Below, piece after piece: positions 26,514 through 37,133 of a stretch of DNA of 64,000 nt. The stretch is from IMG/VR virus record IMGVR_UViG_3300047160_005727, positions 1-64,000 of that record; one strand, given 5' to 3'. Within the stretch, counting starts at the first letter, position 1; each line of letters starts with the position of its first letter. The notes under the pieces were generated by a model. That model was given only the letters and a program-made list of their open reading frames with translations. It was not told the origin of the DNA and did no database searches. Position numbers and translations under genes: made by a program. Origin of the DNA: a virus.

Positions 26514-29500
26514 ATGCCGAGCGTCCTCGGGGAGTCAGCACTTGGGCCAATACATCACGTCCCGCGCGATGGCGATGGCGACGGCCATGTCCATGATGGA
26601 ACGACGAAGGAGCACACAGTCTCGCGTTCGCCAGCGCTTCCGAAGCACGAAGCTAACGGGCTGCGGTCTTTCGGCGACTCTGACTCTATCCGAGCCCGGA
26701 TCCATGACCGAGTCCGTGAAGCTGCCAGTAACATCCCACCCATCACCAACCAGCGACACACCCTGACTCTCGAGGACGTCGGCTACGAAGGTGCCACCCA
26801 GCACGGTATCAACGACTGGAAGAAAGCTATCCTGGGCGGGCGTAGCTTGGGCTCGCGGCTCCGCGGCACCTGGGTGCTGACCGATAACGACACTGGCAAG
26901 GTCATCGAGAAGAAGCGATCGACCGTGGCCACGGTCCCCTACATGACCAGCCACGGCACGTTCGTCCAGAACGGCACCGAGTACACCCTGTCGCACCAGC
27001 TCAGGCTCCGGCCCGGTGTGTTTACCCGCGTGCAGCAGAATGGCGAGCTGGAAGCCCATGTCAACGTGATGCCGGGCAAGGGTGTCGCTCACCGCATCTT
27101 TATGGAGCCGGACACAGGCGTCTTCCGGCTCAAGGTCGGCCAGTCCAAGATGCCCCTGACGTCGGTCCTGCGCGCGATGGGCGCCAGCGACCGGCAGTTG
27201 CACGACGCCTGGGGTGACAACTACCAGGCCAACATGCTCAAGGACGACCCGTCCGTCATCGGCAAGCTGCACTCCCGGCTGGTTCGCAAGCCTGACTCGA
27301 CTAAGACCCCCGAGCAGGAAGTCCGTGAGTCGTTCGAGGGAATGGGGCTCGATCCCGAGGTCACCAAGCGCACTCTGGGCAAGCCCTACGATCGTGTCTC
27401 GCTCGACCAGATGCTGGATACCACCAAGAAGCTCATGGCCATCAACAAGGGTGAGGCCGAAACCGACGATCGCGACCACCTGGCCTACATGACTGCTCTG
27501 GGACCGGAAGACCTGATGGCCGAGCGGGTCGGCAAAGACCGCATGCTCTTGGGGAAGGTTCTTTGGAAAGCATCGATGACTGGCGGGCTCAAGCATGTCC
27601 AGCCGGACTTGCTCACTCGCGGCATCAACGCGGCCATCATGAGCAGCGGGCTCGGCCAGCCTACCGAGGGCATCAACCCGGCCATGATCTTCGACCAGCA
27701 GGCCCGGATCAGCCGGCTGGGCGTGGGCGGTATCCCATCGGTCGACTCGGTCCCGGCTGAAGCTCGTAACGTCCAGCCTTCGCACTTCGGTCTGATCGAT
27801 CCGCTGGTCACTCCCGAGAGCTTGCACGTCGGCATCGATAGCCGGGTGGCCCAGGGAACCATGAAGGGTGACGACGGTCGGCTCTACACGCCGTTCCGGA
27901 ACGTGAAGACTGGCCGTATGGAGCACCGGAGCGCCCAGGACCTGGCTGATGCTGTCATTGCTTTTCCAGGTGAACTGAACACCCTCAAGCCTCATGTCTC
28001 GGCGCTGGTGGGCGGCAAGATCCGGGACGTGCCCCGGAACCAGGTGCAGTACGAGCTGCCCAACATGGACGACGCCTTCAGCTCGATCTCGAACCTGGTG
28101 CCCCTCAAGTCCACTGTGAAAGGCCAGCGCGAGGTCATGGCCGGCCGCATGATCACCCAGGCGCTGCCGGTGTCGAACCCGCAGGCCCCGATGCTGCAAG
28201 CCGGCATCCAGGGCAGTAACGACAGCTACGAGTCCCGCTACGGCAAGCACATGGGTGCCTTGCACAGTGATGTCGGCGGCACCGTGGAGCATGTGGACAA
28301 GGACAAGGGCACGATCACGGTTCGCGGCGATGACGGGCAGCTGCGCAAGCACGAGCTTTATGTCAACTATCCCTATAACAGGAAGACTTATATCCATCAG
28401 ACACCAACCGTCGGGGTTGGGGACCGGGTCAACAAGGGTAGTCTGCTGGCCCGGTCTAACTACACCGACGAGCATGGCGTGGCTGCCCTGGGCCAGAACG
28501 CCCGCGTGGCCTACATTCCGTTCCGCGGACAGAACTTCGAGGACGCGATCGTTATCAGTGAGTCGATGGCCAAGCGGATGTCCTCGGAGCACATGTACCA
28601 GCACTCGCTCGACGCGGAAGAGGGGCTCAAGCCCAGCAAGAAGGCCCATGTCTCGATCTTCCCCGGGCGCTACGACAAGAAGATGCTGGAGACCATCGAC
28701 AACGAGGGCGTGGTCAAGCCCGGCACGATCGTCAACCACGGCGATCCGCTGATCCTGGCGGTCAAGGAACGTGAACGTACCCACGGAGCTATCAGCCGGG
28801 GCCGGTCGGCCTCCTGGGCCGATCACTCGAAGACCTGGGACCATCATGCTCCCGGTGAAGTGACTGACGTCGAGAAGACGCCCAACGGCATCGTGGTCTC
28901 GGTCAAGAGTACCAACCCGATGGAAGTCGGCGACAAGATGTCCGGCAGGTACGGGGACAAGGGAGTGGTTTCGTCGATCGTGCCCGACCACGAGATGCCC
29001 CACGACAGCCAGGGACGACCGTTCGAGGTGTTGTTGAACCCGCTGGGTATCATCTCCCGGACGAACCCGGCACAGAACATCGAGACGGCGTTGGGCAAGA
29101 TCTCCGAGAAGACGGGCCGGCCTTACCGGGTCGTCGACTTCGACAACAACCGTGACTATACCGAGTGGGCCATCGAAGAGCTGGCCAAGCATGGCATGAA
29201 GTCGACCGACACGATCCACGATCCGAGTTCGGGCCGGGATATCCCCAAGGTGCTTACTGGCAGCCGCTGGTTCATGAAGCTGCACCATACCAGCGAGTCC
29301 AAGGCCCAGGGCCGTGGCACCGGTGGCTACACGGCCGAGGGTACACCAGCGCGCGGCGGCGAAGCCGGCTCCAAGCGGATCTCTCTGATGGACATCAACG
29401 CGCTCTTGTCGCACGGAGCGACCGAAGTCCTGCGTGATGCTGGCGCAGTCCGGGGTCAGGCCCATCCGGAATTCTGGCAGCAGTTCATGGCCGGCCAGCC

Positions 29501-30983
29501 GATGCCTACCCCCAAGAGGCCGATGGTCTACGACAAGTTTATTAACTTGCTCAAGGCTGGCGGCATTAACGTGGTACGCCAGGGCACCAGGCTCAATGTC
29601 ATGGCCCTGTCTAACAAAGACGTCAACGAGCTGGCCGGCGATCGGGAGATCAAGCACGCCGACACGGTGGACTGGAAAGGGGGCATGAAGCCCCTGAAGG
29701 GTGGCCTGTTCGACGAAGCCCTGACCGGCGGCCACGGCGGTAACCGGTGGTCCTACATCAAGCTGGCCGAGCCCTTGCCCAACCCAGCCATGGAAGAGCC
29801 GATCCGCCGGATGCTGGGGCTCACCCAGGACAAGTTCATGAGCGTGCTGTCGGGCAAGGAGCAGCTCAACGGGCGTACGGGCTCGGAAGCCATATCCCGG
29901 GCGCTGGACGACATCGACATCGACAAGTCGATCGACCAGGCCAGGGCGGACATCCGGTCGGGCCGCAAGGGAGCGCGCGACGCGGCTGTGCGCAAGCTCG
30001 GCTATCTGAAGTCGGCCAAGCAGTATGGGCTGCACCCTCGCGACTGGATGCTGGACAAGGCCCCCGTGCTGCCGCCGGCTTTCAGGCCCGTCTCGACCAT
30101 GGCCGGCAGCAAGCTGCCGCTGGTGGCCGACGCCAACTATCTCTACAAGGAGCTGATCGAGGCCAGGGATAACCTGCGCGAGATGAAGGGTAAGGTTGGC
30201 GACGTATCCGAAGAACGGCAGGCTGCCTACGATGCCCTGAAAGCTGTAACCGGCCTGGGCGATCCGCTCCACCCCAAGAACAAGGAAAAGGGTGTCCGGG
30301 GCATGCTCAAGCAGGTCTTCGGCAACAGCCCCAAGTCGGGCATCGTCCAGCGCAAGCTGCTGGCTAGTGCGACCGACCTGGTGGGCCGAGCTACCATCGT
30401 GCCCAACCCCGATCTCGACATGGACCAGGTTGGGCTCCCGGAGAACCGGGCCTGGGATGTCTACCAGCCCTTCATCGTTCGCCGGCTGGTGCGCAGAGGT
30501 ATGAACCGGATCGACGCTGTTCGAGCTGTTCGGGACCGCCGGCCCGAAGCTCGTGAAGCAATGGTCACCGAGATGGATGCCCGGCCGGTCATCATCAACC
30601 GGGCTCCGGTACTTCACCGGTACGGCATCATGGCCTTCAGGCCCAGGCTCGAGAAGGGCGATACGTTGCACGTATCCCCACTGATCGTTTCGGGGTTCAA
30701 TGCTGACTTCGACGGCGATGCCATGCAGTATCACGTGCCGGTCACCGATGAGGCAGTCCGGGACGCCTACGAGAAGATGTTACCCTCCAGGAATTTATTA
30801 GCTGCTGCCTCATTTAAGGTTCACATTTTGCCTTCCAGAGAATATGCTGGCGGTCTCTATGCAGCATCATCGGCGAAGTCTGATAAACGGCCAAGAGTCT
30901 TTGCCACCAAAGCAGATGCGATGGCTGCCTATCGACGTGGCGACATCAATGTTGATCAGCCCATCGAGATCGTCCAGCACTAA
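26514..30983 (+). CDS. rpoB-rpoC(N): Phage multisubunit RNA polymerase: beta subunit fused to the N-terminal (catalytic) half of beta'
   Basis: Beta motifs: VQPSHFGLIDPLVTPES, NFEDAIVISE, GDKMSGRYGDKG, LNPLGIISR, MKLHH. Beta' motifs: GGLFD, VLPPAFRP, NRAPVLHR, NADFDGD (30699-30719). Confidence 0.95.
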   Translation: MPSVLGESALGPIHHVPRDGDGDGHVHDGTTKEHTVSRSPALPKHEANGLRSFGDSDSIRARIHDRVREAASNIPPITNQRHTLTLEDVGYEGATQHGINDWKKAILGGRSLGSRLRGTWVLTDNDTGKVIEKKRSTVATVPYMTSHGTFVQNGTEYTLSHQLRLRPGVFTRVQQNGELEAHVNVMPGKGVAHRIFMEPDTGVFRLKVGQSKMPLTSVLRAMGASDRQLHDAWGDNYQANMLKDDPSVIGKLHSRLVRKPDSTKTPEQEVRESFEGMGLDPEVTKRTLGKPYDRVSLDQMLDTTKKLMAINKGEAETDDRDHLAYMTALGPEDLMAERVGKDRMLLGKVLWKASMTGGLKHVQPDLLTRGINAAIMSSGLGQPTEGINPAMIFDQQARISRLGVGGIPSVDSVPAEARNVQPSHFGLIDPLVTPESLHVGIDSRVAQGTMKGDDGRLYTPFRNVKTGRMEHRSAQDLADAVIAFPGELNTLKPHVSALVGGKIRDVPRNQVQYELPNMDDAFSSISNLVPLKSTVKGQREVMAGRMITQALPVSNPQAPMLQAGIQGSNDSYESRYGKHMGALHSDVGGTVEHVDKDKGTITVRGDDGQLRKHELYVNYPYNRKTYIHQTPTVGVGDRVNKGSLLARSNYTDEHGVAALGQNARVAYIPFRGQNFEDAIVISESMAKRMSSEHMYQHSLDAEEGLKPSKKAHVSIFPGRYDKKMLETIDNEGVVKPGTIVNHGDPLILAVKERERTHGAISRGRSASWADHSKTWDHHAPGEVTDVEKTPNGIVVSVKSTNPMEVGDKMSGRYGDKGVVSSIVPDHEMPHDSQGRPFEVLLNPLGIISRTNPAQNIETALGKISEKTGRPYRVVDFDNNRDYTEWAIEELAKHGMKSTDTIHDPSSGRDIPKVLTGSRWFMKLHHTSESKAQGRGTGGYTAEGTPARGGEAGSKRISLMDINALLSHGATEVLRDAGAVRGQAHPEFWQQFMAGQPMPTPKRPMVYDKFINLLKAGGINVVRQGTRLNVMALSNKDVNELAGDREIKHADTVDWKGGMKPLKGGLFDEALTGGHGGNRWSYIKLAEPLPNPAMEEPIRRMLGLTQDKFMSVLSGKEQLNGRTGSEAISRALDDIDIDKSIDQARADIRSGRKGARDAAVRKLGYLKSAKQYGLHPRDWMLDKAPVLPPAFRPVSTMAGSKLPLVADANYLYKELIEARDNLREMKGKVGDVSEERQAAYDALKAVTGLGDPLHPKNKEKGVRGMLKQVFGNSPKSGIVQRKLLASATDLVGRATIVPNPDLDMDQVGLPENRAWDVYQPFIVRRLVRRGMNRIDAVRAVRDRRPEAREAMVTEMDARPVIINRAPVLHRYGIMAFRPRLEKGDTLHVSPLIVSGFNADFDGDAMQYHVPVTDEAVRDAYEKMLPSRNLLAAASFKVHILPSREYAGGLYAASSAKSDKRPRVFATKADAMAAYRRGDINVDQPIEIVQH

Positions 30984-30995
30984 TGGAAGGGTCAA

Positions 30996-31604
30996 GTGGC
31001 AACCTCAACGGAACGAGCCAGGGCTCGTCGAGCCGCTGGTCTTTGCATCACCTGCCTGAAGAAGCACAAGTCCGGTCGAGCCCGCTGCCAGAAGTGTCAT
31101 GACAGATGTCTGGCTGCACAACGTAAGTCTCGTCGTGAACGGACTGCTCGTAATATCTGTCCCTGCGGCAAACCGCCAGTGGCGGGTAAGCGACTTTGCA
31201 AGAAATGTCAGAAGGTACAGGTCACTATCACCAGAGCACGAATGAAGCGCTATCGTGCCGCCGGCCTATGTTGTTGCGGTAAGCCTCCGGTTACTGGTAA
31301 GAAGTCGTGTGGTGCCTGTCTGGAAACCTTCAGGCGAGCGCATCAGAAACTTCGAGATGAAGTCTTCGCCGCCTATGGTGGTTACATCTGCAAGTGCTGT
31401 GACGAGACCATACCCGAGTTCCTTGAACTTGATCATATCGACAATAACGGCGGGAGCCATCGCCGCAAGATCGGATCCGGTATGATGTATCGTTGGTTGA
31501 AGACGCACGGCTTCCCGCCCGGCTATCAGGTACTCTGCTCGAACTGTCACTTCGCGCGGCATCGTCATGGCCGTTGTCCGCATGAAGCCCTTAAGCTAAG
31601 ATAA
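30996..31604 (+). CDS. Free-standing HNH endonuclease with Cys-rich repeats
   Basis: Repeated CxxC units, then CKCC.E...LELDHIDNNG...YRWL...GFP.GYQVLCSNCH. Lower GC than flanking genes. Confidence 0.85.
   Translation: MATSTERARARRAAGLCITCLKKHKSGRARCQKCHDRCLAAQRKSRRERTARNICPCGKPPVAGKRLCKKCQKVQVTITRARMKRYRAAGLCCCGKPPVTGKKSCGACLETFRRAHQKLRDEVFAAYGGYICKCCDETIPEFLELDHIDNNGGSHRRKIGSGMMYRWLKTHGFPPGYQVLCSNCHFARHRHGRCPHEALKLR
31574..31602 (+). promoter_or_regulatory. Sigma70-like promoter TTGTCC-N17-TAAGAT
   Basis: 17-bp spacing at the 3' end of the HNH gene, ahead of 31654. Confidence 0.4.
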
Positions 31605-31653: not shown

Positions 31654-32403
31654 ATGGCCGTGACCCCGCTTATCAACCCGCATCTGCGAGCCGTAGCACG
31701 GTGGCGAGTCGGCAGTGATGTCCTGGACGACAGCGAGTTCGAGAAGACCGCACAGCCCCCCGGCGACCCGACTGCCGGTGGTGGAGCGCCGCCTGCGCCG
31801 ATGCCAGATCCTGCGGCTATGGCTGCTGGTGGCGGTGGTGCGCCTCCGCCGCCCGGCGGCCCGCTTGATCCGGCGACACTGGCTCAGATCACCCAGGCGG
31901 TCCACGGCTCTGGCGGCGGCCCTGGCGGACCCCATGGTAAGGGCGGCGGCAAGAAGGCTGAGCAACAGCTCCTGGATACCAAGCTGTGGACGATCCAGTT
32001 CCTACTGGTGAAGATCTGTGAGAACCTCCAGATCCAGGTACCGCCTTCGATCGTGGTCGGCCCGCCGCCCGATCAGATGATGATGCAACAGGCACAGCAA
32101 GAGCAGGCAGCCCCTGGCGGTGGCGGCGCCAACATCGAAGGAGCCGGCGGGGGTGGAGGTGGCCCGGCCGGACCTGGCCCGATCCCGCCATTGACAGCTG
32201 ACCAAGGCCCGATCGGCGGCGCGCCTGGCGGTGGCGGCATGAAGGCAGGTTCCGCCATCAGTAACCTGTCCAACCTGATCGATACTGGCCGCAGGTCGTT
32301 TGACGTCGGCTCCGAGTATGCGCTCGACTCGCTGCGTGAAGTCCGTAGCAAGGCAGCGGCCATGGCTGCTCTTTCGAGATCACTCAAGAACGGTGCTGCA
32401 TGA
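31654..32403 (+). CDS. Pro/Gly-rich virion-associated protein
   Basis: FEKTAQ and RSKAAA motifs; low-complexity Pro/Gly tracts around a short helical core. Confidence 0.7.
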   Translation: MAVTPLINPHLRAVARWRVGSDVLDDSEFEKTAQPPGDPTAGGGAPPAPMPDPAAMAAGGGGAPPPPGGPLDPATLAQITQAVHGSGGGPGGPHGKGGGKKAEQQLLDTKLWTIQFLLVKICENLQIQVPPSIVVGPPPDQMMMQQAQQEQAAPGGGGANIEGAGGGGGGPAGPGPIPPLTADQGPIGGAPGGGGMKAGSAISNLSNLIDTGRRSFDVGSEYALDSLREVRSKAAAMAALSRSLKNGAA

Positions 32404-32654
32404 TCCTGGAGATACTCGACGGTCTGGGGCATCCCATTGTGATCCCGGCCACCCGCGTGGTGATCAAGAGCTACAACGGGACACCTCTGGCTGCGGCTGT
32501 GGAATGGGAAGGCAGCGAGGACGGGACGCACATCACGGTAGCTCACGCCAACGATAAGAACTTCAACCAGGTCCTGGCCAACCTCGGCCTCGACCGGGTC
32601 AAGGTCGATACGGTTACGCCCAAAGCTCTCAGCGACTACGCCTGGCGGGTTTGA
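32400..32654 (+). CDS. Small hypothetical protein
   Basis: ATGA overlap with the upstream stop; 84 aa. Confidence 0.72.
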   Translation: MILEILDGLGHPIVIPATRVVIKSYNGTPLAAAVEWEGSEDGTHITVAHANDKNFNQVLANLGLDRVKVDTVTPKALSDYAWRV

Positions 32655-32682
32655 GCTAAAGATCGGGCGTTTTCTTGTCATA
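32655..32682 (+). promoter_or_regulatory. Bipartite motif GCTAAA-N15-TGTCATA, copy 1
   Basis: Identical boxes recur at 33337 and 34051, each at the start of a unit. Confidence 0.65.
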
Positions 32683-32689
32683 TAGAAGT

Positions 32690-33066
32690 GTGGGACGCCT
32701 ATGTCGTTTCCACCTGCCAGCTCCTGTTCCCTTTTCATGGGAGTCTGTGGCAGTAGCCGATCCTTGGTACGTCACGCTCGTTGCGTACGTATCGCCAAGG
32801 TCACGGCAACGGGAAAAGGGCCGGAAAGCTACCGGAGCTGGTTCGGGTTTAGCGACTCTCGGACAGGAGAGGAAGTACCCGAGGCAATATGACTGTGTCG
32901 CCTGGTTGACTTTGTGCTGGGGATCGCCGCGTCTAGTCAACGCGGAACACTCCTACAAGGTCAAGACCCGGCCATCCGTAGCAAGACTGCGGAGCGGACC
33001 AGGATGGTTCATGCAACACGGTGGGTACCCGTGCGCTGCGGAAGGGGCTGTCTCCCCTTCTTTTTT
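32690..33066 (+). ncRNA. Candidate structured RNA A
   Basis: Lies between the promoter motif and an intrinsic terminator. Stems: CCTTGG/CCAAGG, GTTGACT/AGTCAAC, CCATCC/GGATGG, TCCGTAG/CTGCGGA, CACGG/CCGTG. Confidence 0.5.
33041..33066 (+). terminator. Intrinsic terminator
   Basis: GAAGGGG-CTGTCT-CCCCTTC followed by T6. Confidence 0.8.
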
Positions 33067-33084
33067 CACTTGCCCATGAAGTGA

Positions 33085-33322
33085 TGTAGCTGGTTGACTT
33101 TCTTGTGTGACATCTTTGAGCTGCCCGGCACCCCCGCACGTCCGCGTGGGGCCCATTACGCCGACGTGGTGGACGCACCACGACGAAGACGGATGGATCA
33201 GTCCAAGGCCAGGCTACCTGCGACAAGACCGCAGGATGGTCGGAGGGGAGGTTCCCTGACCCGACAAGCGACATGGTGATATTCCATGCAACGCGGAAAA
33301 AGGCTAACAACCTTTTTTTTTT
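33085..33322 (+). ncRNA. Candidate structured RNA B, related to RNA A
   Basis: Stems: CGTGGTG/CACCACG, CCTGCG/CGCAGG, GTCGG/CCGAC, CATGG/CCATG. Shares four colinear motifs with RNA A and ends in T10. Confidence 0.5.
33297..33322 (+). terminator. Terminator-like hairpin with T-run
   Basis: AAAAAGG-CTAACAA-CCTTTTT with a T10 run; the stem is weak. Confidence 0.5.
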
Positions 33323-33336
33323 ACCTATCAGCGGAT

Positions 33337-33364
33337 GCTAAAACTTGGCGCCGGTTCTGTCATA
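33337..33364 (+). promoter_or_regulatory. Bipartite motif GCTAAA-N15-TGTCATA, copy 2
   Basis: Upstream of the 33494 ORF. Confidence 0.65.
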
Positions 33365-33493
33365 TACCAATGCAGTGCAGCTATGATCTGGGCTGATCAC
33401 CTGGATCGTCAAGTAGCTGTGTTGTACGGCGTGGGGTAGCACCTTGCCCCACGTCGTTTCGTTTACCATCAACAGGAGTAATGGAGGAGCGTA

Positions 33494-33925
33494 ATGACTA
33501 CAGAGGGAAACGGTATCGCGCGAATGGAGCAGGAGACAGTGGTGCATAAGCTATCGGACTGGTTGTTGCGGCAGCCAGGGCCATCGAAGCCGTACGTCGA
33601 AGCCGTGACCGGGCCGACGGAAGGCTTCAACATCGAGGGGACGTTTGCAGGGAAACCGATCTACGTGTTATGCAGCGGTGGCCCGCTGAACGAGCGCGAG
33701 GGAACGGAAGAATGGGCGACCCTGGACGGGATCATGGCCAAGGCCCTGTCCATGATGGAAGCCTACCGTGAAGATATCTGGCTCGCGGTCCCCAACTCTC
33801 CGGCGTTCGAGGCAGCAGCACGTAGTGCTGCTGCTAACCTGGAACTGGCCAAGCCCTGGCAGGCCATCGCGCTTGTCGGGCCAGGTGGGCAAGTGCGGTT
33901 CATCCAACGGCCGAAGACGGCGTAA
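33494..33925 (+). CDS. Hypothetical protein, possibly a degenerate PD-(D/E)XK nuclease fold
   Basis: GGAGGAG RBS; E..V...L..WL...G...FNIEG.....IYVLCSGG...IWLAVP...IALV pattern. Confidence 0.7.
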   Translation: MTTEGNGIARMEQETVVHKLSDWLLRQPGPSKPYVEAVTGPTEGFNIEGTFAGKPIYVLCSGGPLNEREGTEEWATLDGIMAKALSMMEAYREDIWLAVPNSPAFEAAARSAAANLELAKPWQAIALVGPGGQVRFIQRPKTA

Positions 33926-34024
33926 CGGATGTGACGGATGTAACGGTTGCAAGCGACAGCAAGCGACTGCAAGCGACTGCAAACGACAGCAAGTGACAGC
34001 AAATGTCGCAACCGTTACATCCGT
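33922..34024. repeat. Five 10-bp tandem repeats enclosed by a perfect 17-bp inverted repeat
   Basis: ACGGATGTAACGGTTGC (33934-33950) / GCAACCGTTACATCCGT (34008-34024). AARYGACWGC x5 (33951-34000). 9-bp GTRACGGWT x3 (33922-33948). Confidence 0.9.
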
Positions 34025-34050
34025 ACTTTTTTCCTGTTTTTTGGCTGTTT

Positions 34051-34079
34051 GCTAAAGCCACGGGCCATTCCGTGTCATA
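34051..34079 (+). promoter_or_regulatory. Bipartite motif GCTAAA-N16-TGTCATA, copy 3
   Basis: Upstream of the 34155 ORF. Confidence 0.65.
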
Positions 34080-34154
34080 AACTGTGAGGGGTATCATATC
34101 GCTTGATACCGATGGGAACCGTAGCAAGGGCCTGGCCCTTGAAAGGAGTTTTGA

Positions 34155-35087
34155 ATGGCTTCGGTTCAGAGAGTCACTGTCATGGTCGAACGCGATGGTA
34201 TAGGTGTCGAGACCATCACGTTCGAGCGAGGCGGCGACACGAGGATCACTTTGGACCTGTTCGAGAAGCGGTCTGTTTGCTTCTCGGTAAGCAGTCTGGA
34301 TGCCGGTTCTAATGCTCGACCACCGTTGCAAGAGGAACGGATAGCAGAGCCGGCACCCGTGTCGGAAGCAGTGAAAAGCCCGCCGTCATCATCCACACCA
34401 TCCCCGGTCGTTGAACCGGTGGAACCGCCCATGAATGGTGAAGTTCTACATGCGACACCAACAACGCATCTTGAAGGTGCGACTGCGGCCTCGCAAAAGG
34501 CAGCAGAGGGCGAGCGCTGGAAACACTACGATGATGACGATGAGCTATCGGATGATGATCTATCGCGGAAGGCTTCACCGAACTCGAAGGCTACCATGGC
34601 CACGGCGCTGAAGAGCAGGGGCAAGCCCAAGGATCAGCGACGTAGCAATGAGCACCCCGAGTACTACAGGAACCACCACGACTATCGTGGGCCAGACGGT
34701 AGATCGTGGCAGAAGCGCCCCGAGACGCTGACTGCCGAGCCGTTGGCTGTCGAACTGTCGACTCCTGAGTCACCTCCTATGGAGGACTCTGGATCGGCAA
34801 CGGTGGGTGCGGCGCTCTTGGATCCGGTGAAGCCTGGGGTATCCGCGTTCGCTTCGCTGGCTGCCGCGCCGGCTCCTGCTCCGAAGGCGTTCTTGCCGGG
34901 CACGCCCGAGTTCGTGCCCAGGCGGAAGCATCGGGACAGGAAACGAAAGAAGAAGACCAGCCGCAGAAACCAGGGCTGGTACAAGAACAAGTTGCGGGAT
35001 ATCGGGGGCAAGCTCCGATCGTCTCTTGATCTCTTGGGGGACCGTAAGGTTCTGCTTCCGATCGACATTCCTACGCCTTCGTCGTAA
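34155..35087 (+). CDS. Largely disordered hypothetical protein with acidic and basic tracts
   Basis: AAAGGAG RBS; DDDDELSDDD and RRKHRDRKRKKK tracts. Confidence 0.7.
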   Translation: MASVQRVTVMVERDGIGVETITFERGGDTRITLDLFEKRSVCFSVSSLDAGSNARPPLQEERIAEPAPVSEAVKSPPSSSTPSPVVEPVEPPMNGEVLHATPTTHLEGATAASQKAAEGERWKHYDDDDELSDDDLSRKASPNSKATMATALKSRGKPKDQRRSNEHPEYYRNHHDYRGPDGRSWQKRPETLTAEPLAVELSTPESPPMEDSGSATVGAALLDPVKPGVSAFASLAAAPAPAPKAFLPGTPEFVPRRKHRDRKRKKKTSRRNQGWYKNKLRDIGGKLRSSLDLLGDRKVLLPIDIPTPSS

Positions 35088-35090
35088 GTT

Positions 35091-35138
35091 ATGGGGGGAT
35101 GGGACGGCCTGCGGGCTGCCCTCCCCCATCCTTTTTTT
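35091..35138 (+). terminator. Intrinsic terminator
   Basis: GGATGGG...CCCATCC stem followed by T7. Confidence 0.7.
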
Positions 35139-35156
35139 AACTATCAGGCGGCAGGG

Positions 35157-37133
35157 ATGCTCAAGACGACCCTCGGTCAGATGATGCTGAACGATCAGCT
35201 CCCCGAGGACATGCGGGACTACACCCGCACCCTGGATAAGAAGGGTATCCAGAAGCTGTTCCAGGAAGTTGCCGAGCGGTATCCCGACAGATACCGAGAA
35301 GTGGCCAAGCGGCTCTCCGACATGGGCCGTGATGTTGCCTACTCTACCGGCGGCTTCTCTCCTAGCCTGGAAGACATGCGGCCCAGCAAAGCGGCTGAGC
35401 GCATCAAGGAACAGATCCGCCGGCACGTTCAGCTGATCCAGGCTGACAACCGGATGGATGACGAGCGCAAGTCACAGGCGATCGTTGCTGCCGTGGAAGA
35501 GCGGCAGAAGGAGATGGAGGATGCCGTCTTCGAGGAAGCCAAGGCATCTGGCAACCCCTATGCGCACCAGGTGGTTTCCGGTGCGCGGGGCAGCAAGCTC
35601 AACCTGAAGTCATTGCTGGGCTCGGACATGCTCTACGTCGATCACCACGATCGGCCGATCCCGGTGCCAGTGCTTAACGCATATCCGCGTGGGCTCTCGC
35701 CAGTCGAGTACTGGGCCGGTGCCTTCGGGGCTCGCAAGGGCGTCGCGGCCACCAAGTTCGCCACTCGAGATGCCGGCTCGCTGGCCAAGCAGCTCAACCA
35801 GGTTGCTCACCGGCTGATCATCACGGGCCATGACGACCCGAACGAAGACACATCCACGATCCGCGGGCTGCCGACGGCGACTGATGATCCCGACAATGAG
35901 GGGGCCTTGCTGGCTCATCCGGCCGGGCCGTATGGCCGGAACACGATCTTGACTCCCAAGATCCTCAAGGACCTCCAGACCAAAGGGCATGGCAAGATCC
36001 TGGTTCGATCACCCCTGGTAGGCGGACCGGCTCACGGTGGGGTTTTCGCCCGCGATGTCGGTGTCCGGGAGCGGGGCGGTCTGGCGCCCATGGGTGACTA
36101 TGTCGGTCTGGCTGCTGCGCAAGCTCTCTCCGAGAAGCTATCCCAGGGGCAGCTGTCAGCCAAGCATACCGGCGGTGTCGCCGGTGCCGACAAAGCTGTC
36201 TCCGGCTTTGCTCTTATCAACCAATTGATCCAGGTACCGAAAACTTTTACGGGCGGCGCTACCCATGCCCAGCTCGACGGCAAGATCACGTCGATCGAAG
36301 ATGCCCCCCAGGGTGGCAAGTATGTCAACGTCGGCAGCGAGCAGCACTACATACCGCACGGGCTCGACCCGACCGTCAAGATCGGTGACTCGGTCGAGGC
36401 CGGCGATACCATTTCAGGGGGCCTGCCCAACCCCGCAGAGATGGTCAAGCACAAGGGCATCGGCGAGGGTCGCCGCCATTTTGTCAAGGCGTTCGGGGAT
36501 GCCTACCGGGGCTCGGACATGGGTGCACACCGGCGAAACATCGAGCTTCTGGCCAGGGGCTTGATCGATCATGTTCGGGTAACGGACGAGTTTGGTGATC
36601 ATGTAGAGGACGACATCGTGCCGTACTCGACCATCGAGAAGAGCTGGAACCCGCGCGCGGGTTCCAAAGTGGTCGGACTGTCGTCGGCTGTGGGTAAGTA
36701 CCTCGAACGTCCTGTCCTGCATCACAGCATTGGCACCAGGGTCAAGCCCGGGATGCTTCCCGAACTCAAAGAGTTCGGGGTCAATAACCTGGAGGTTCAT
36801 GATGAACCTCCGCCGTTTGAGCCGACGATGATCCGGGGCCAGTACAACCTCCAGCACGACCCCGACTGGATGACCCGGCATATCGGTTCCGGACTGGAGA
36901 AAGCCACCCTCCAGGCAGCTCACCGGGGCTCCAGTAGCGATATCGCTGGTACGAGCTATGTCCCTGCACTGGCAGAACGTACGCACTTCGGCAGGCAGGG
37001 TCCGACCCAGGGTTGGCACCCGGAGGCGCAGCATTGGGACGACGATGACGATAATATAGGCCACGACGATACGCCAAAAGTGCGGCCCCATACGCCAGCC
37101 GGCGCCAGGACCGCTACCTGGCGGTCTGACTGA
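35157..37133 (+). CDS. rpoC(C): Phage RNA polymerase beta' C-terminal half
   Basis: TTLGQ, SGARGS, bridge helix GLSPVEYW..AFGARKG...T.DAG.L...L, trigger loop GLAAAQALSE..SQ....KHTGG, HRRNIELLAR. Confidence 0.92.
   Translation: MLKTTLGQMMLNDQLPEDMRDYTRTLDKKGIQKLFQEVAERYPDRYREVAKRLSDMGRDVAYSTGGFSPSLEDMRPSKAAERIKEQIRRHVQLIQADNRMDDERKSQAIVAAVEERQKEMEDAVFEEAKASGNPYAHQVVSGARGSKLNLKSLLGSDMLYVDHHDRPIPVPVLNAYPRGLSPVEYWAGAFGARKGVAATKFATRDAGSLAKQLNQVAHRLIITGHDDPNEDTSTIRGLPTATDDPDNEGALLAHPAGPYGRNTILTPKILKDLQTKGHGKILVRSPLVGGPAHGGVFARDVGVRERGGLAPMGDYVGLAAAQALSEKLSQGQLSAKHTGGVAGADKAVSGFALINQLIQVPKTFTGGATHAQLDGKITSIEDAPQGGKYVNVGSEQHYIPHGLDPTVKIGDSVEAGDTISGGLPNPAEMVKHKGIGEGRRHFVKAFGDAYRGSDMGAHRRNIELLARGLIDHVRVTDEFGDHVEDDIVPYSTIEKSWNPRAGSKVVGLSSAVGKYLERPVLHHSIGTRVKPGMLPELKEFGVNNLEVHDEPPPFEPTMIRGQYNLQHDPDWMTRHIGSGLEKATLQAAHRGSSSDIAGTSYVPALAERTHFGRQGPTQGWHPEAQHWDDDDDNIGHDDTPKVRPHTPAGARTATWRSD

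Follow-up and report, generated by a model that had tools for sequence, protein, structure and literature searches.

The small RNAs DicF, IpeX, AgvB and AsxR of lambdoid prophages are Hfq-dependent, base-pairing RNAs of 50-100 nt with known enterobacterial targets. The nut site of phage lambda (boxB) and the put site of phage HK022 work in cis, and neither is fused to a terminator; boxB has a pentaloop and is partnered by boxA. 6S RNA is an imperfect rod of ~180 nt whose large central bubble mimics an open promoter, and ToxI-like antitoxin RNAs consist of near-identical tandem repeats (about 36-45 nt) upstream of a ToxN-family toxin gene. The Pseudomonas phage PA5oct has four ncRNAs of about 236-619 nt that were annotated from RNA-seq (PMC7318152). 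Mining of IMG/VR intergenic regions has yielded 8,495 novel csRNAs, many of which include Rho-independent terminators; at least three unique IMG/VR regions were required in that survey, and its motifs average 67 nt (PMC10690425). Here we describe an ORF-free locus of an uncultured jumbo phage in which comparison of the copies identifies two units, B1 and B2, as paralogues of one structured-RNA family that also has one copy in a sister phage. It has no match in Rfam, and we regard it as a new, probably undescribed family.

The source record is a 141-kb IMG/VR jumbo phage with an estimated completeness of 68%, and the window, the whole stretch analysed here, is its first 64 kb (GC ~61%). Long ORFs taken as genes are on the + strand throughout. 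The record encodes its own multisubunit RNA polymerase, recognised with Pfam, and a single beta gene set is detectable both in it and in a complete relative (G002, contig 3300036846_000743, 226 kb, 100% complete). No cultured phage is close: the best tblastn identity to beta'-C among cultured phages is 25-28%. A 202-aa ORF at 30996-31604, immediately 3' of the beta-beta'N fusion gene, was matched by PHROG search to an HNH endonuclease family (E 1e-6) and may be a homing endonuclease inside the polymerase cluster. In G002 (C1:121480-123565, - strand), an Rpb2 domain-6 match is divided over adjacent open frames of 1202 and 683 aa, with profile positions 5-228 in one and 231-361 in the other; G002 may have a split or interrupted beta subunit where the window has a single 1489-aa fusion. 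An accessory cassette of ~2.4 kb (window 32655-35090) lies between an 84-aa gene and beta'-C and contains promoter-like sites, the RNAs, a repeat array with a 10-bp period and fast-evolving ORFs. The features discussed below are as follows.

26514-30983, + strand: beta plus beta'-N fusion, 1489 aa (Pfam).
32655-32684, + strand: promoter-like bipartite site P1, GCTAAA-N15-TGTCATATA (found by motif; putative promoter).
32687-32901, + strand: module A, the variable structured 5' part of the first putative transcript (found by folding).
32902-33067, + strand: B1, paralogue 1 (model R1 106.9 bits; nhmmer E 1e-3).
33069-33322, + strand: B2, paralogue 2 (model R1 112.3 bits; nhmmer E 1.1e-6).
33337-33366, + strand: second promoter-like copy (found by motif; assigned to the 143-aa ORF at 33494-33925, not to the RNAs).
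33426-33457, + strand: strong leader hairpin of the 143-aa ORF (14 bp, -23.9 kcal/mol), at the downstream edge of the non-coding gap.
35091-37133, + strand: beta'-C, 680 aa (Pfam).

Among the contigs compared, only this phage and its closest known relative carry the cassette. That relative is IMG/VR contig 3300047160_006395 (L003/L005, record G001), whose beta'-C is 79% identical. In all four other relatives (G002, L257, L258 and L259) the cassette is missing and the 84-aa gene abuts beta'-C with no gap; L257-L259 are more distant, with beta'-C 55-57% identical. The cassette is thus lineage-specific and splits an RNA-polymerase operon, and because this operon is contiguous in all four other relatives, the cassette was most likely inserted in the lineage of the window phage and G001. 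After its 84-aa gene, G001 has a homologous non-coding region made up of the same promoter-like site, a module A with its own terminator and a single, likewise terminated B unit. Compared with this sister phage, the window has an extra promoter-like site and the 143-aa ORF between the RNAs and the array; this ORF matches nothing in Pfam at E up to 1, and the RNA-carrying relative lacks it. Downstream of the RNAs, both phages have a proline-rich ORF, of 310 aa in the window (34155-35087) and of 377 aa in the relative (L005 6740-7873). The two have only a basic/aromatic segment of ~70 aa in common (32% identity, E 1e-6) and no family match, and their predicted products are fast-evolving cassette proteins. 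The window array consists of 5.4 copies of GCAAGCGACA with a 10-bp period (33949-34002, within 33922-34045) and is enclosed by a 15-nt inverted repeat, with T-runs after it. Its counterpart in L005 (6519-6580), directly 3' of the B terminator, has three copies of AGCGACA followed by three of CGTAGCAAAC. The array has a similar position in both phages, shortly before the promoter-like site that belongs to the homologous 310/377-aa ORF, which suggests that it is an operator.

The gap at 32655-33493 is non-coding. Codon-usage log-odds based on the phage's own usage are negative in all three + frames, and the candidate ORFs scored in the gap, two of them on the - strand, all fall between -0.27 and -0.36, compared with +0.07 to +0.33 for the flanking genes. 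These ORFs reach 134 aa (+) and 125 aa (-), and neither Pfam nor PHROG searches matched any of them. Six-frame peptides from the window region and from the relative's homologous region have only short nucleotide-driven matches in common, and inspection showed that the frames of 11 and 16 aa with a start inside helix P3 are missing from B1. An earlier note on this DNA had described ~630 bp without a convincing ORF, which the negative codon scores, the empty Pfam and PHROG searches and the lack of a conserved peptide bear out. Conserved small ORFs, named there as the competing explanation, were looked for against the related phage and none was found.

The region is best read as three modules (A, B1 and B2) rather than as two units. 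The terminator that was proposed to split it in two is present at 33040-33061; the first of the supposed units is a composite of module A and B1. Upstream of module A, site P1 consists of GCTAAA (32655-32660), a 15-nt spacer and TGTCATATA (32676-32684), and it overlaps the 84-aa gene at the stop codon. The motif has the form GCTAAA-N14-17-[TG]GTCATA, usually followed by AAGTG plus a 5' hairpin, and occurs in five strong copies in 141 kb, every one on the + strand (window 32655, 33337 and 34051; genome 105676 and 133900), with weaker ones at 104670 and 116823. Copies other than site P1 precede protein genes, whose leaders open with a hairpin. The related contig L005 has a promoter-like site at the same place, and the sister phage has at least six copies in total. 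The motif may be read by the host polymerase, since the beta'-C operon lies behind one copy and only one polymerase gene set was seen. Module A starts with a small hairpin (~32690-32714); its likeness to the relative's module A is confined to the first ~45 nt, with negative codon scores, and the relative's module A found no match in the 141-kb genome as an nhmmer query. There is no terminator between module A and B1, and the first transcript would therefore be ~380 nt long.

Both B units open with or contain an identical 12-nt motif and close with a terminator. The motif, CTGGTTGACTTT, is at 32902-32913 in B1 and at 33090-33101 in B2, with 12 of 12 positions identical as the earlier note had it, where ~0.01 such pairs are expected in 630 nt. 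The TTGACT within it was rejected as a sigma-70 promoter because no usable -10 element stands at 16-18 nt. In B1, hairpin P1 (32975-32993, loop GCAAGAC) is followed by P2 (32996-33010), P3 (33013-33039) and a terminator hairpin plus T-run (33040-33067). B2 has a variable 5' domain with hairpins at 33130-33190, then hairpin P1 (33217-33235, loop ACAAGAC), P2 (33238-33265) and P3 (33268-33294), and ends in a weak AU-rich terminator hairpin plus T10 (33295-33322). The B1 terminator hairpin is called with its T-run by the consensus scan, at -12.6 kcal/mol, and the relative's B terminator has -13.3 kcal/mol; that of B2 has -6.0 kcal/mol and fails the scan's GC criterion. The GC-rich hairpin and subsequent U-run of an intrinsic terminator are thus found, weakly for B2, and it is correct that a T-run after a hairpin ends each unit, the second being the weaker. 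Expression from a new promoter motif had also been proposed: the motif does lie directly upstream of the first unit, but B2 has no copy of its own.

The B units have a common core of ~110 nt, the 3' domain, in which hairpin P1, the variable hairpin P2, the interrupted helix P3, GGAA and the terminator follow in this order; the consensus fold has four helices. Hairpin P1 has 6 bp and a 7-nt loop that reads GCAAGAC, ACAAGAC or ACATGAC (consensus nCAWGAC), helix P3 has the form GCr-A-CAYGG, loop, CCRUG-Cnn-yGC, and P2 varies in length between copies. The loop of hairpin P1 is invariant at 5 of 7 positions and the 5' strand of its stem at 2 of 6, which, as far as three sequences can tell, is how a structural stem that presents a recognition loop should vary. 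The CAAGAC-loop hairpins described earlier accordingly fold on different stems, and CAGGATGGT does recur at 33000 and 33232. A GATGGTTCATGCAAC.CGG block is likewise present (33003 and 33278; 79% over 19 nt), but the counterparts given for it were mismatched: the alignment of CATGCAAC.CGG at 33010 with 33285 is off by one helix strand, because B1 33010 is in the 5' strand of P3, with its true counterpart at B2 33264 (CAAGCGACATGG), and B2 33285 is in the P3 3' strand. A long-range stem between the CTGGTTGACT motif and AGTC..AA..CCAG can be drawn in B1 and B2; it was discarded as inconsistent across folds and with the relative.

In statistics that cover three distinct copies from two genomes, with a structure derived from the very sequences counted, 95% of the 87 pair cells hold standard pairs, a share that falls to ~49% on sliding the 3' partners by 1-3 columns, and both sides are altered across the copies in 10 of the 29 pairs. 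At most 2 of 500 column shuffles match the observed cells paired, the two double-change counts or the covariation score, and 9 of 500 match the observed count of further pair types. The + strand pairs in 83 of 87 cells and the - strand in 71 of 87, a difference that is due mostly to G-U pairs in the terminator. Covariation across three copies is statistically weak and is supportive rather than proof. The genome of the window has nine hairpins with the loop of hairpin P1, B1 and B2 included, compared with ~3-4 expected; over two genomes these are too few to count as enrichment.

The third B copy comes from the closest related phage contig, where it occupies the corresponding locus. When this copy was used as a sequence-only nhmmer query against both strands of the 141-kb genome, it found exactly B2 (E 1.1e-6) and B1 (E 1e-3). 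The earlier proposal of a duplicated ncRNA family with compensatory changes is upheld in this way, by a relative's copy that picks out B1 and B2 and by helices that pair through double changes. A covariance model, R1, was built on the shared 3' domain of the three distinct copies, which score 107-116 bits by construction; it found nothing else above 14 bits in G000, G001 and G002. In 492 kb of metagenome, 619 kb of prokaryote and 42 kb of distant-relative loci, other stretches scored at most ~21 bits, with the lone exception of a 1.9-kb metagenome contig that contains the RNA region and is 99.9% identical to the window. This contig (L211, Ga0306926_10311265), from another sample, corresponds to window 31816-33765, from which it departs in one SNP within the 84-aa gene and in a B2 terminator tail of T9 instead of T10; on this near-identity, a second data set contains the phage too. 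It was also the only copy left after R1 filtering of 80 metagenome loci among the pattern matches listed. A degenerate DNA pattern matched the known relative alone in IMG/VR. In prokaryote genomes a strict pattern had no match and a loose one gave no covariance-model hit; matches to the latter lie mostly in one Pseudomonas gene, presumably, from its translation, for valyl-tRNA synthetase. Protein-guided searches of IMG/VR returned one RNA carrier (L005, record G001), four cassette-less relatives and one spurious match, and those of prokaryote genomes returned nothing. The neighbouring 84-aa protein has 24 relatives, some on contigs of 58-246 kb. The Rfam search recommended in the earlier note gave no family match: none of the 4227 models of Rfam 15 reached its gathering threshold anywhere in the window, and at E up to 10 only a chance-level wcaG (14 bits compared with a threshold of 42) appeared in 32600-33520 and only chance-level matches in the relative's region.

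We favour, with a probability of about one half, the reading that the B RNAs are released and act in trans, with the conserved loop of hairpin P1 contacting a partner. The 5' part of the cassette would give rise to two products. Transcript 1 would comprise module A and B1 in ~380 nt, with its 5' end closely following site P1 and its 3' end set by the intrinsic terminator at 33040-33067. The other product, B2 as an RNA of ~250 nt, would run to the T10-tailed hairpin at 33295-33322, and its transcription might come about through read-through, processing or an unrecognised promoter. Once released, the RNAs would act in trans, the hairpin P1 loop and its conserved 5' flank touching a protein or RNA partner. 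Transcription from site P1, termination and production of B2 are what we infer; trans action and the partner are guesses. Module A and the B 5' domains, which diverge fast, may carry little function. As to an RNA partner, antisense matches of the RNAs within the phage genome are at chance level, and with RNAduplex they pair with phage translation-initiation regions no better than shuffled RNAs. A more specific proposal is that the B RNAs form a new class of phage regulatory RNA which uses the P1 loop and its flank to bind an RNA polymerase, either the phage's streamlined beta-beta'N / beta'C enzyme or that of the host; the inserted promoter, RNAs and terminators would then have rewired expression of the phage polymerase, with a put- or 6S-like function in a new fold. 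We consider this quite improbable. The association with the RNA polymerase and the decoy role that had been suggested before gained no support in the analysis, and 6S RNA itself is rejected, as the MFE and consensus folds are series of short hairpins and there is no Rfam 6S match at E up to 10.

The main rival to release and action in trans is that the B units are cis-acting regulated terminators, nut/put-like or attenuator-like, which gate read-through from site P1 or from the beta-beta'N operon into the 143-aa and 310-aa ORFs and beta'-C, with a protein or the RNA itself modifying the elongating polymerase. Since relatives have this operon in one piece, the terminators of the cassette within it are bound to interrupt co-transcription of beta'-C. 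Protein-binding antitermination hairpins, too, have a conserved loop on a covarying stem immediately 5' of a terminator, and two such units stand in tandem. However, the next genes downstream have promoter-like copies of their own, no upstream segment complementary to the 5' strand of a terminator, as an antiterminator would be, was seen by eye in any copy, and in each unit the terminator is joined to the conserved core at a fixed spacing (GGAA), as for an RNA's own 3' end. These three points are the basis of our preference for released, trans-acting RNAs, and since the copies also have no boxA-like element in common, we hold regulation in cis to be tentative and on the unlikely side. A region with no RNA function, a decaying filler or the remnant of a dead gene with promoter and terminator elements, whose hairpins are ordinary GC-rich self-complementarity kept by recent duplication, would account for the modest whole-unit shuffle z-scores (-2.7 for A+B1 and -1.0 for B2) and for the lack of conservation of most of the region even in the closest relative. 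It is made doubtful by the 110-nt core, kept in three copies with pairing-preserving double changes and a conserved loop inside a region otherwise diverged beyond blastn detection, and no protein remnant was traced with peptides, Pfam or PHROG.

There is a slim chance that the RNAs are instead priming, activating or regulatory transcripts of the AGCGACA array with its 10-bp period, itself a possible origin, partition site or operator. The same core unit occurs near the RNAs in both phages (33949-34002; L005 6519-6580), and the 9-mer CAAGCGACA has just two occurrences in 141 kb, in B2 (33265) and in the array (33950). Yet this 9-mer is in one copy only, B1 and the relative having CATGCAACA, and a whole gene with a promoter-like site separates the RNAs from the array in the window. 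The array, moreover, is closely followed by the promoter-like site at 34051-34081, a position that would suit an operator of this site, and the coarse 1-kb GC-skew profile has no turning point near 33 kb. Least probable of all is a sponge for a CsrA/RsmA-type protein, one form of the sponge put forward in the earlier note, in which looped GGA motifs would titrate a host translational regulator. The window region is enriched in GGA (21 in 638 nt; z = 2.9, top 0.9% of genome windows), and CAGGAUG, present in both window copies, can be drawn in a hairpin loop (GACC-gCAGGAU-GGUC); but the relative's homologous region has 6 GGA in 462 nt, about background, and its site reads CAGGGCG. A sponge RNA of the CsrB/RsmY/RsmZ class was rejected since neither the enrichment nor the site is conserved in the relative, and Rfam gave no CsrB/RsmY/RsmZ match even at E up to 10.

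ORF-free stretches are many in jumbo phages and usually go unannotated; one of them here resolves into a defined RNA family, together with paralogues, a candidate promoter class, terminators and a cassette that divides an RNA-polymerase operon which would otherwise be contiguous. Should the RNAs be expressed, they would offer a handle on RNA-based regulation in a phage clade without a cultured member, and would illustrate how an essential operon can be re-partitioned by accessory 'RNA morons'. For now, the family is one more orphan structured RNA among the thousands predicted in phages, and its value is moderate.

Several described classes can be set aside. ARAGORN found no tRNA or tmRNA in the window, and at lowered thresholds its calls were inconsistent and not common to the copies. 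A CRISPR-repeat mimic is rejected on architecture and on the negative Rfam searches, and a ToxI-like RNA because the units are 170-250 nt long and diverged and Tandem Repeats Finder found no array in 32655-33493; the 143-aa ORF that follows them, moreover, matches no Pfam family at E up to 1 and has no counterpart in the RNA-carrying relative. The locus has in common with the 6S idea that its RNA genes are located among RNAP subunit genes. Like nut and put, it has conserved-loop hairpins downstream of a phage promoter(-like site) and upstream of terminators, and by analogy of location a link to RNA polymerase is plausible, although no boxA/boxB-like consensus is common to the three copies. It resembles the lambdoid small RNA cassettes in being made of accessory small RNA genes with a promoter(-like site) and an intrinsic terminator, some of them with several paralogues; unlike the lambdoid RNAs, its units are 170-380 nt long, no target was found for them in the phage genome and they have no sequence similarity to those RNAs (Rfam negative). 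With the csRNAs mined from IMG/VR the B RNAs share a conserved, covarying motif in uncultured phage contigs, but they occur in two or three IMG/VR contigs and have a 110-nt core. The B RNAs belong with the orphan phage-encoded small RNAs, and like the ncRNAs of PA5oct they are ORF-free, + strand units of a few hundred nt in a jumbo phage that resemble no known sequence. The PA5oct ncRNAs are defined by their transcripts, with no promoter, structure or paralogy described, and no sequence relation to them is expected; the window RNAs, by contrast, are known from sequence alone and come with a promoter-like site, terminators, two paralogues and a conserved structure.
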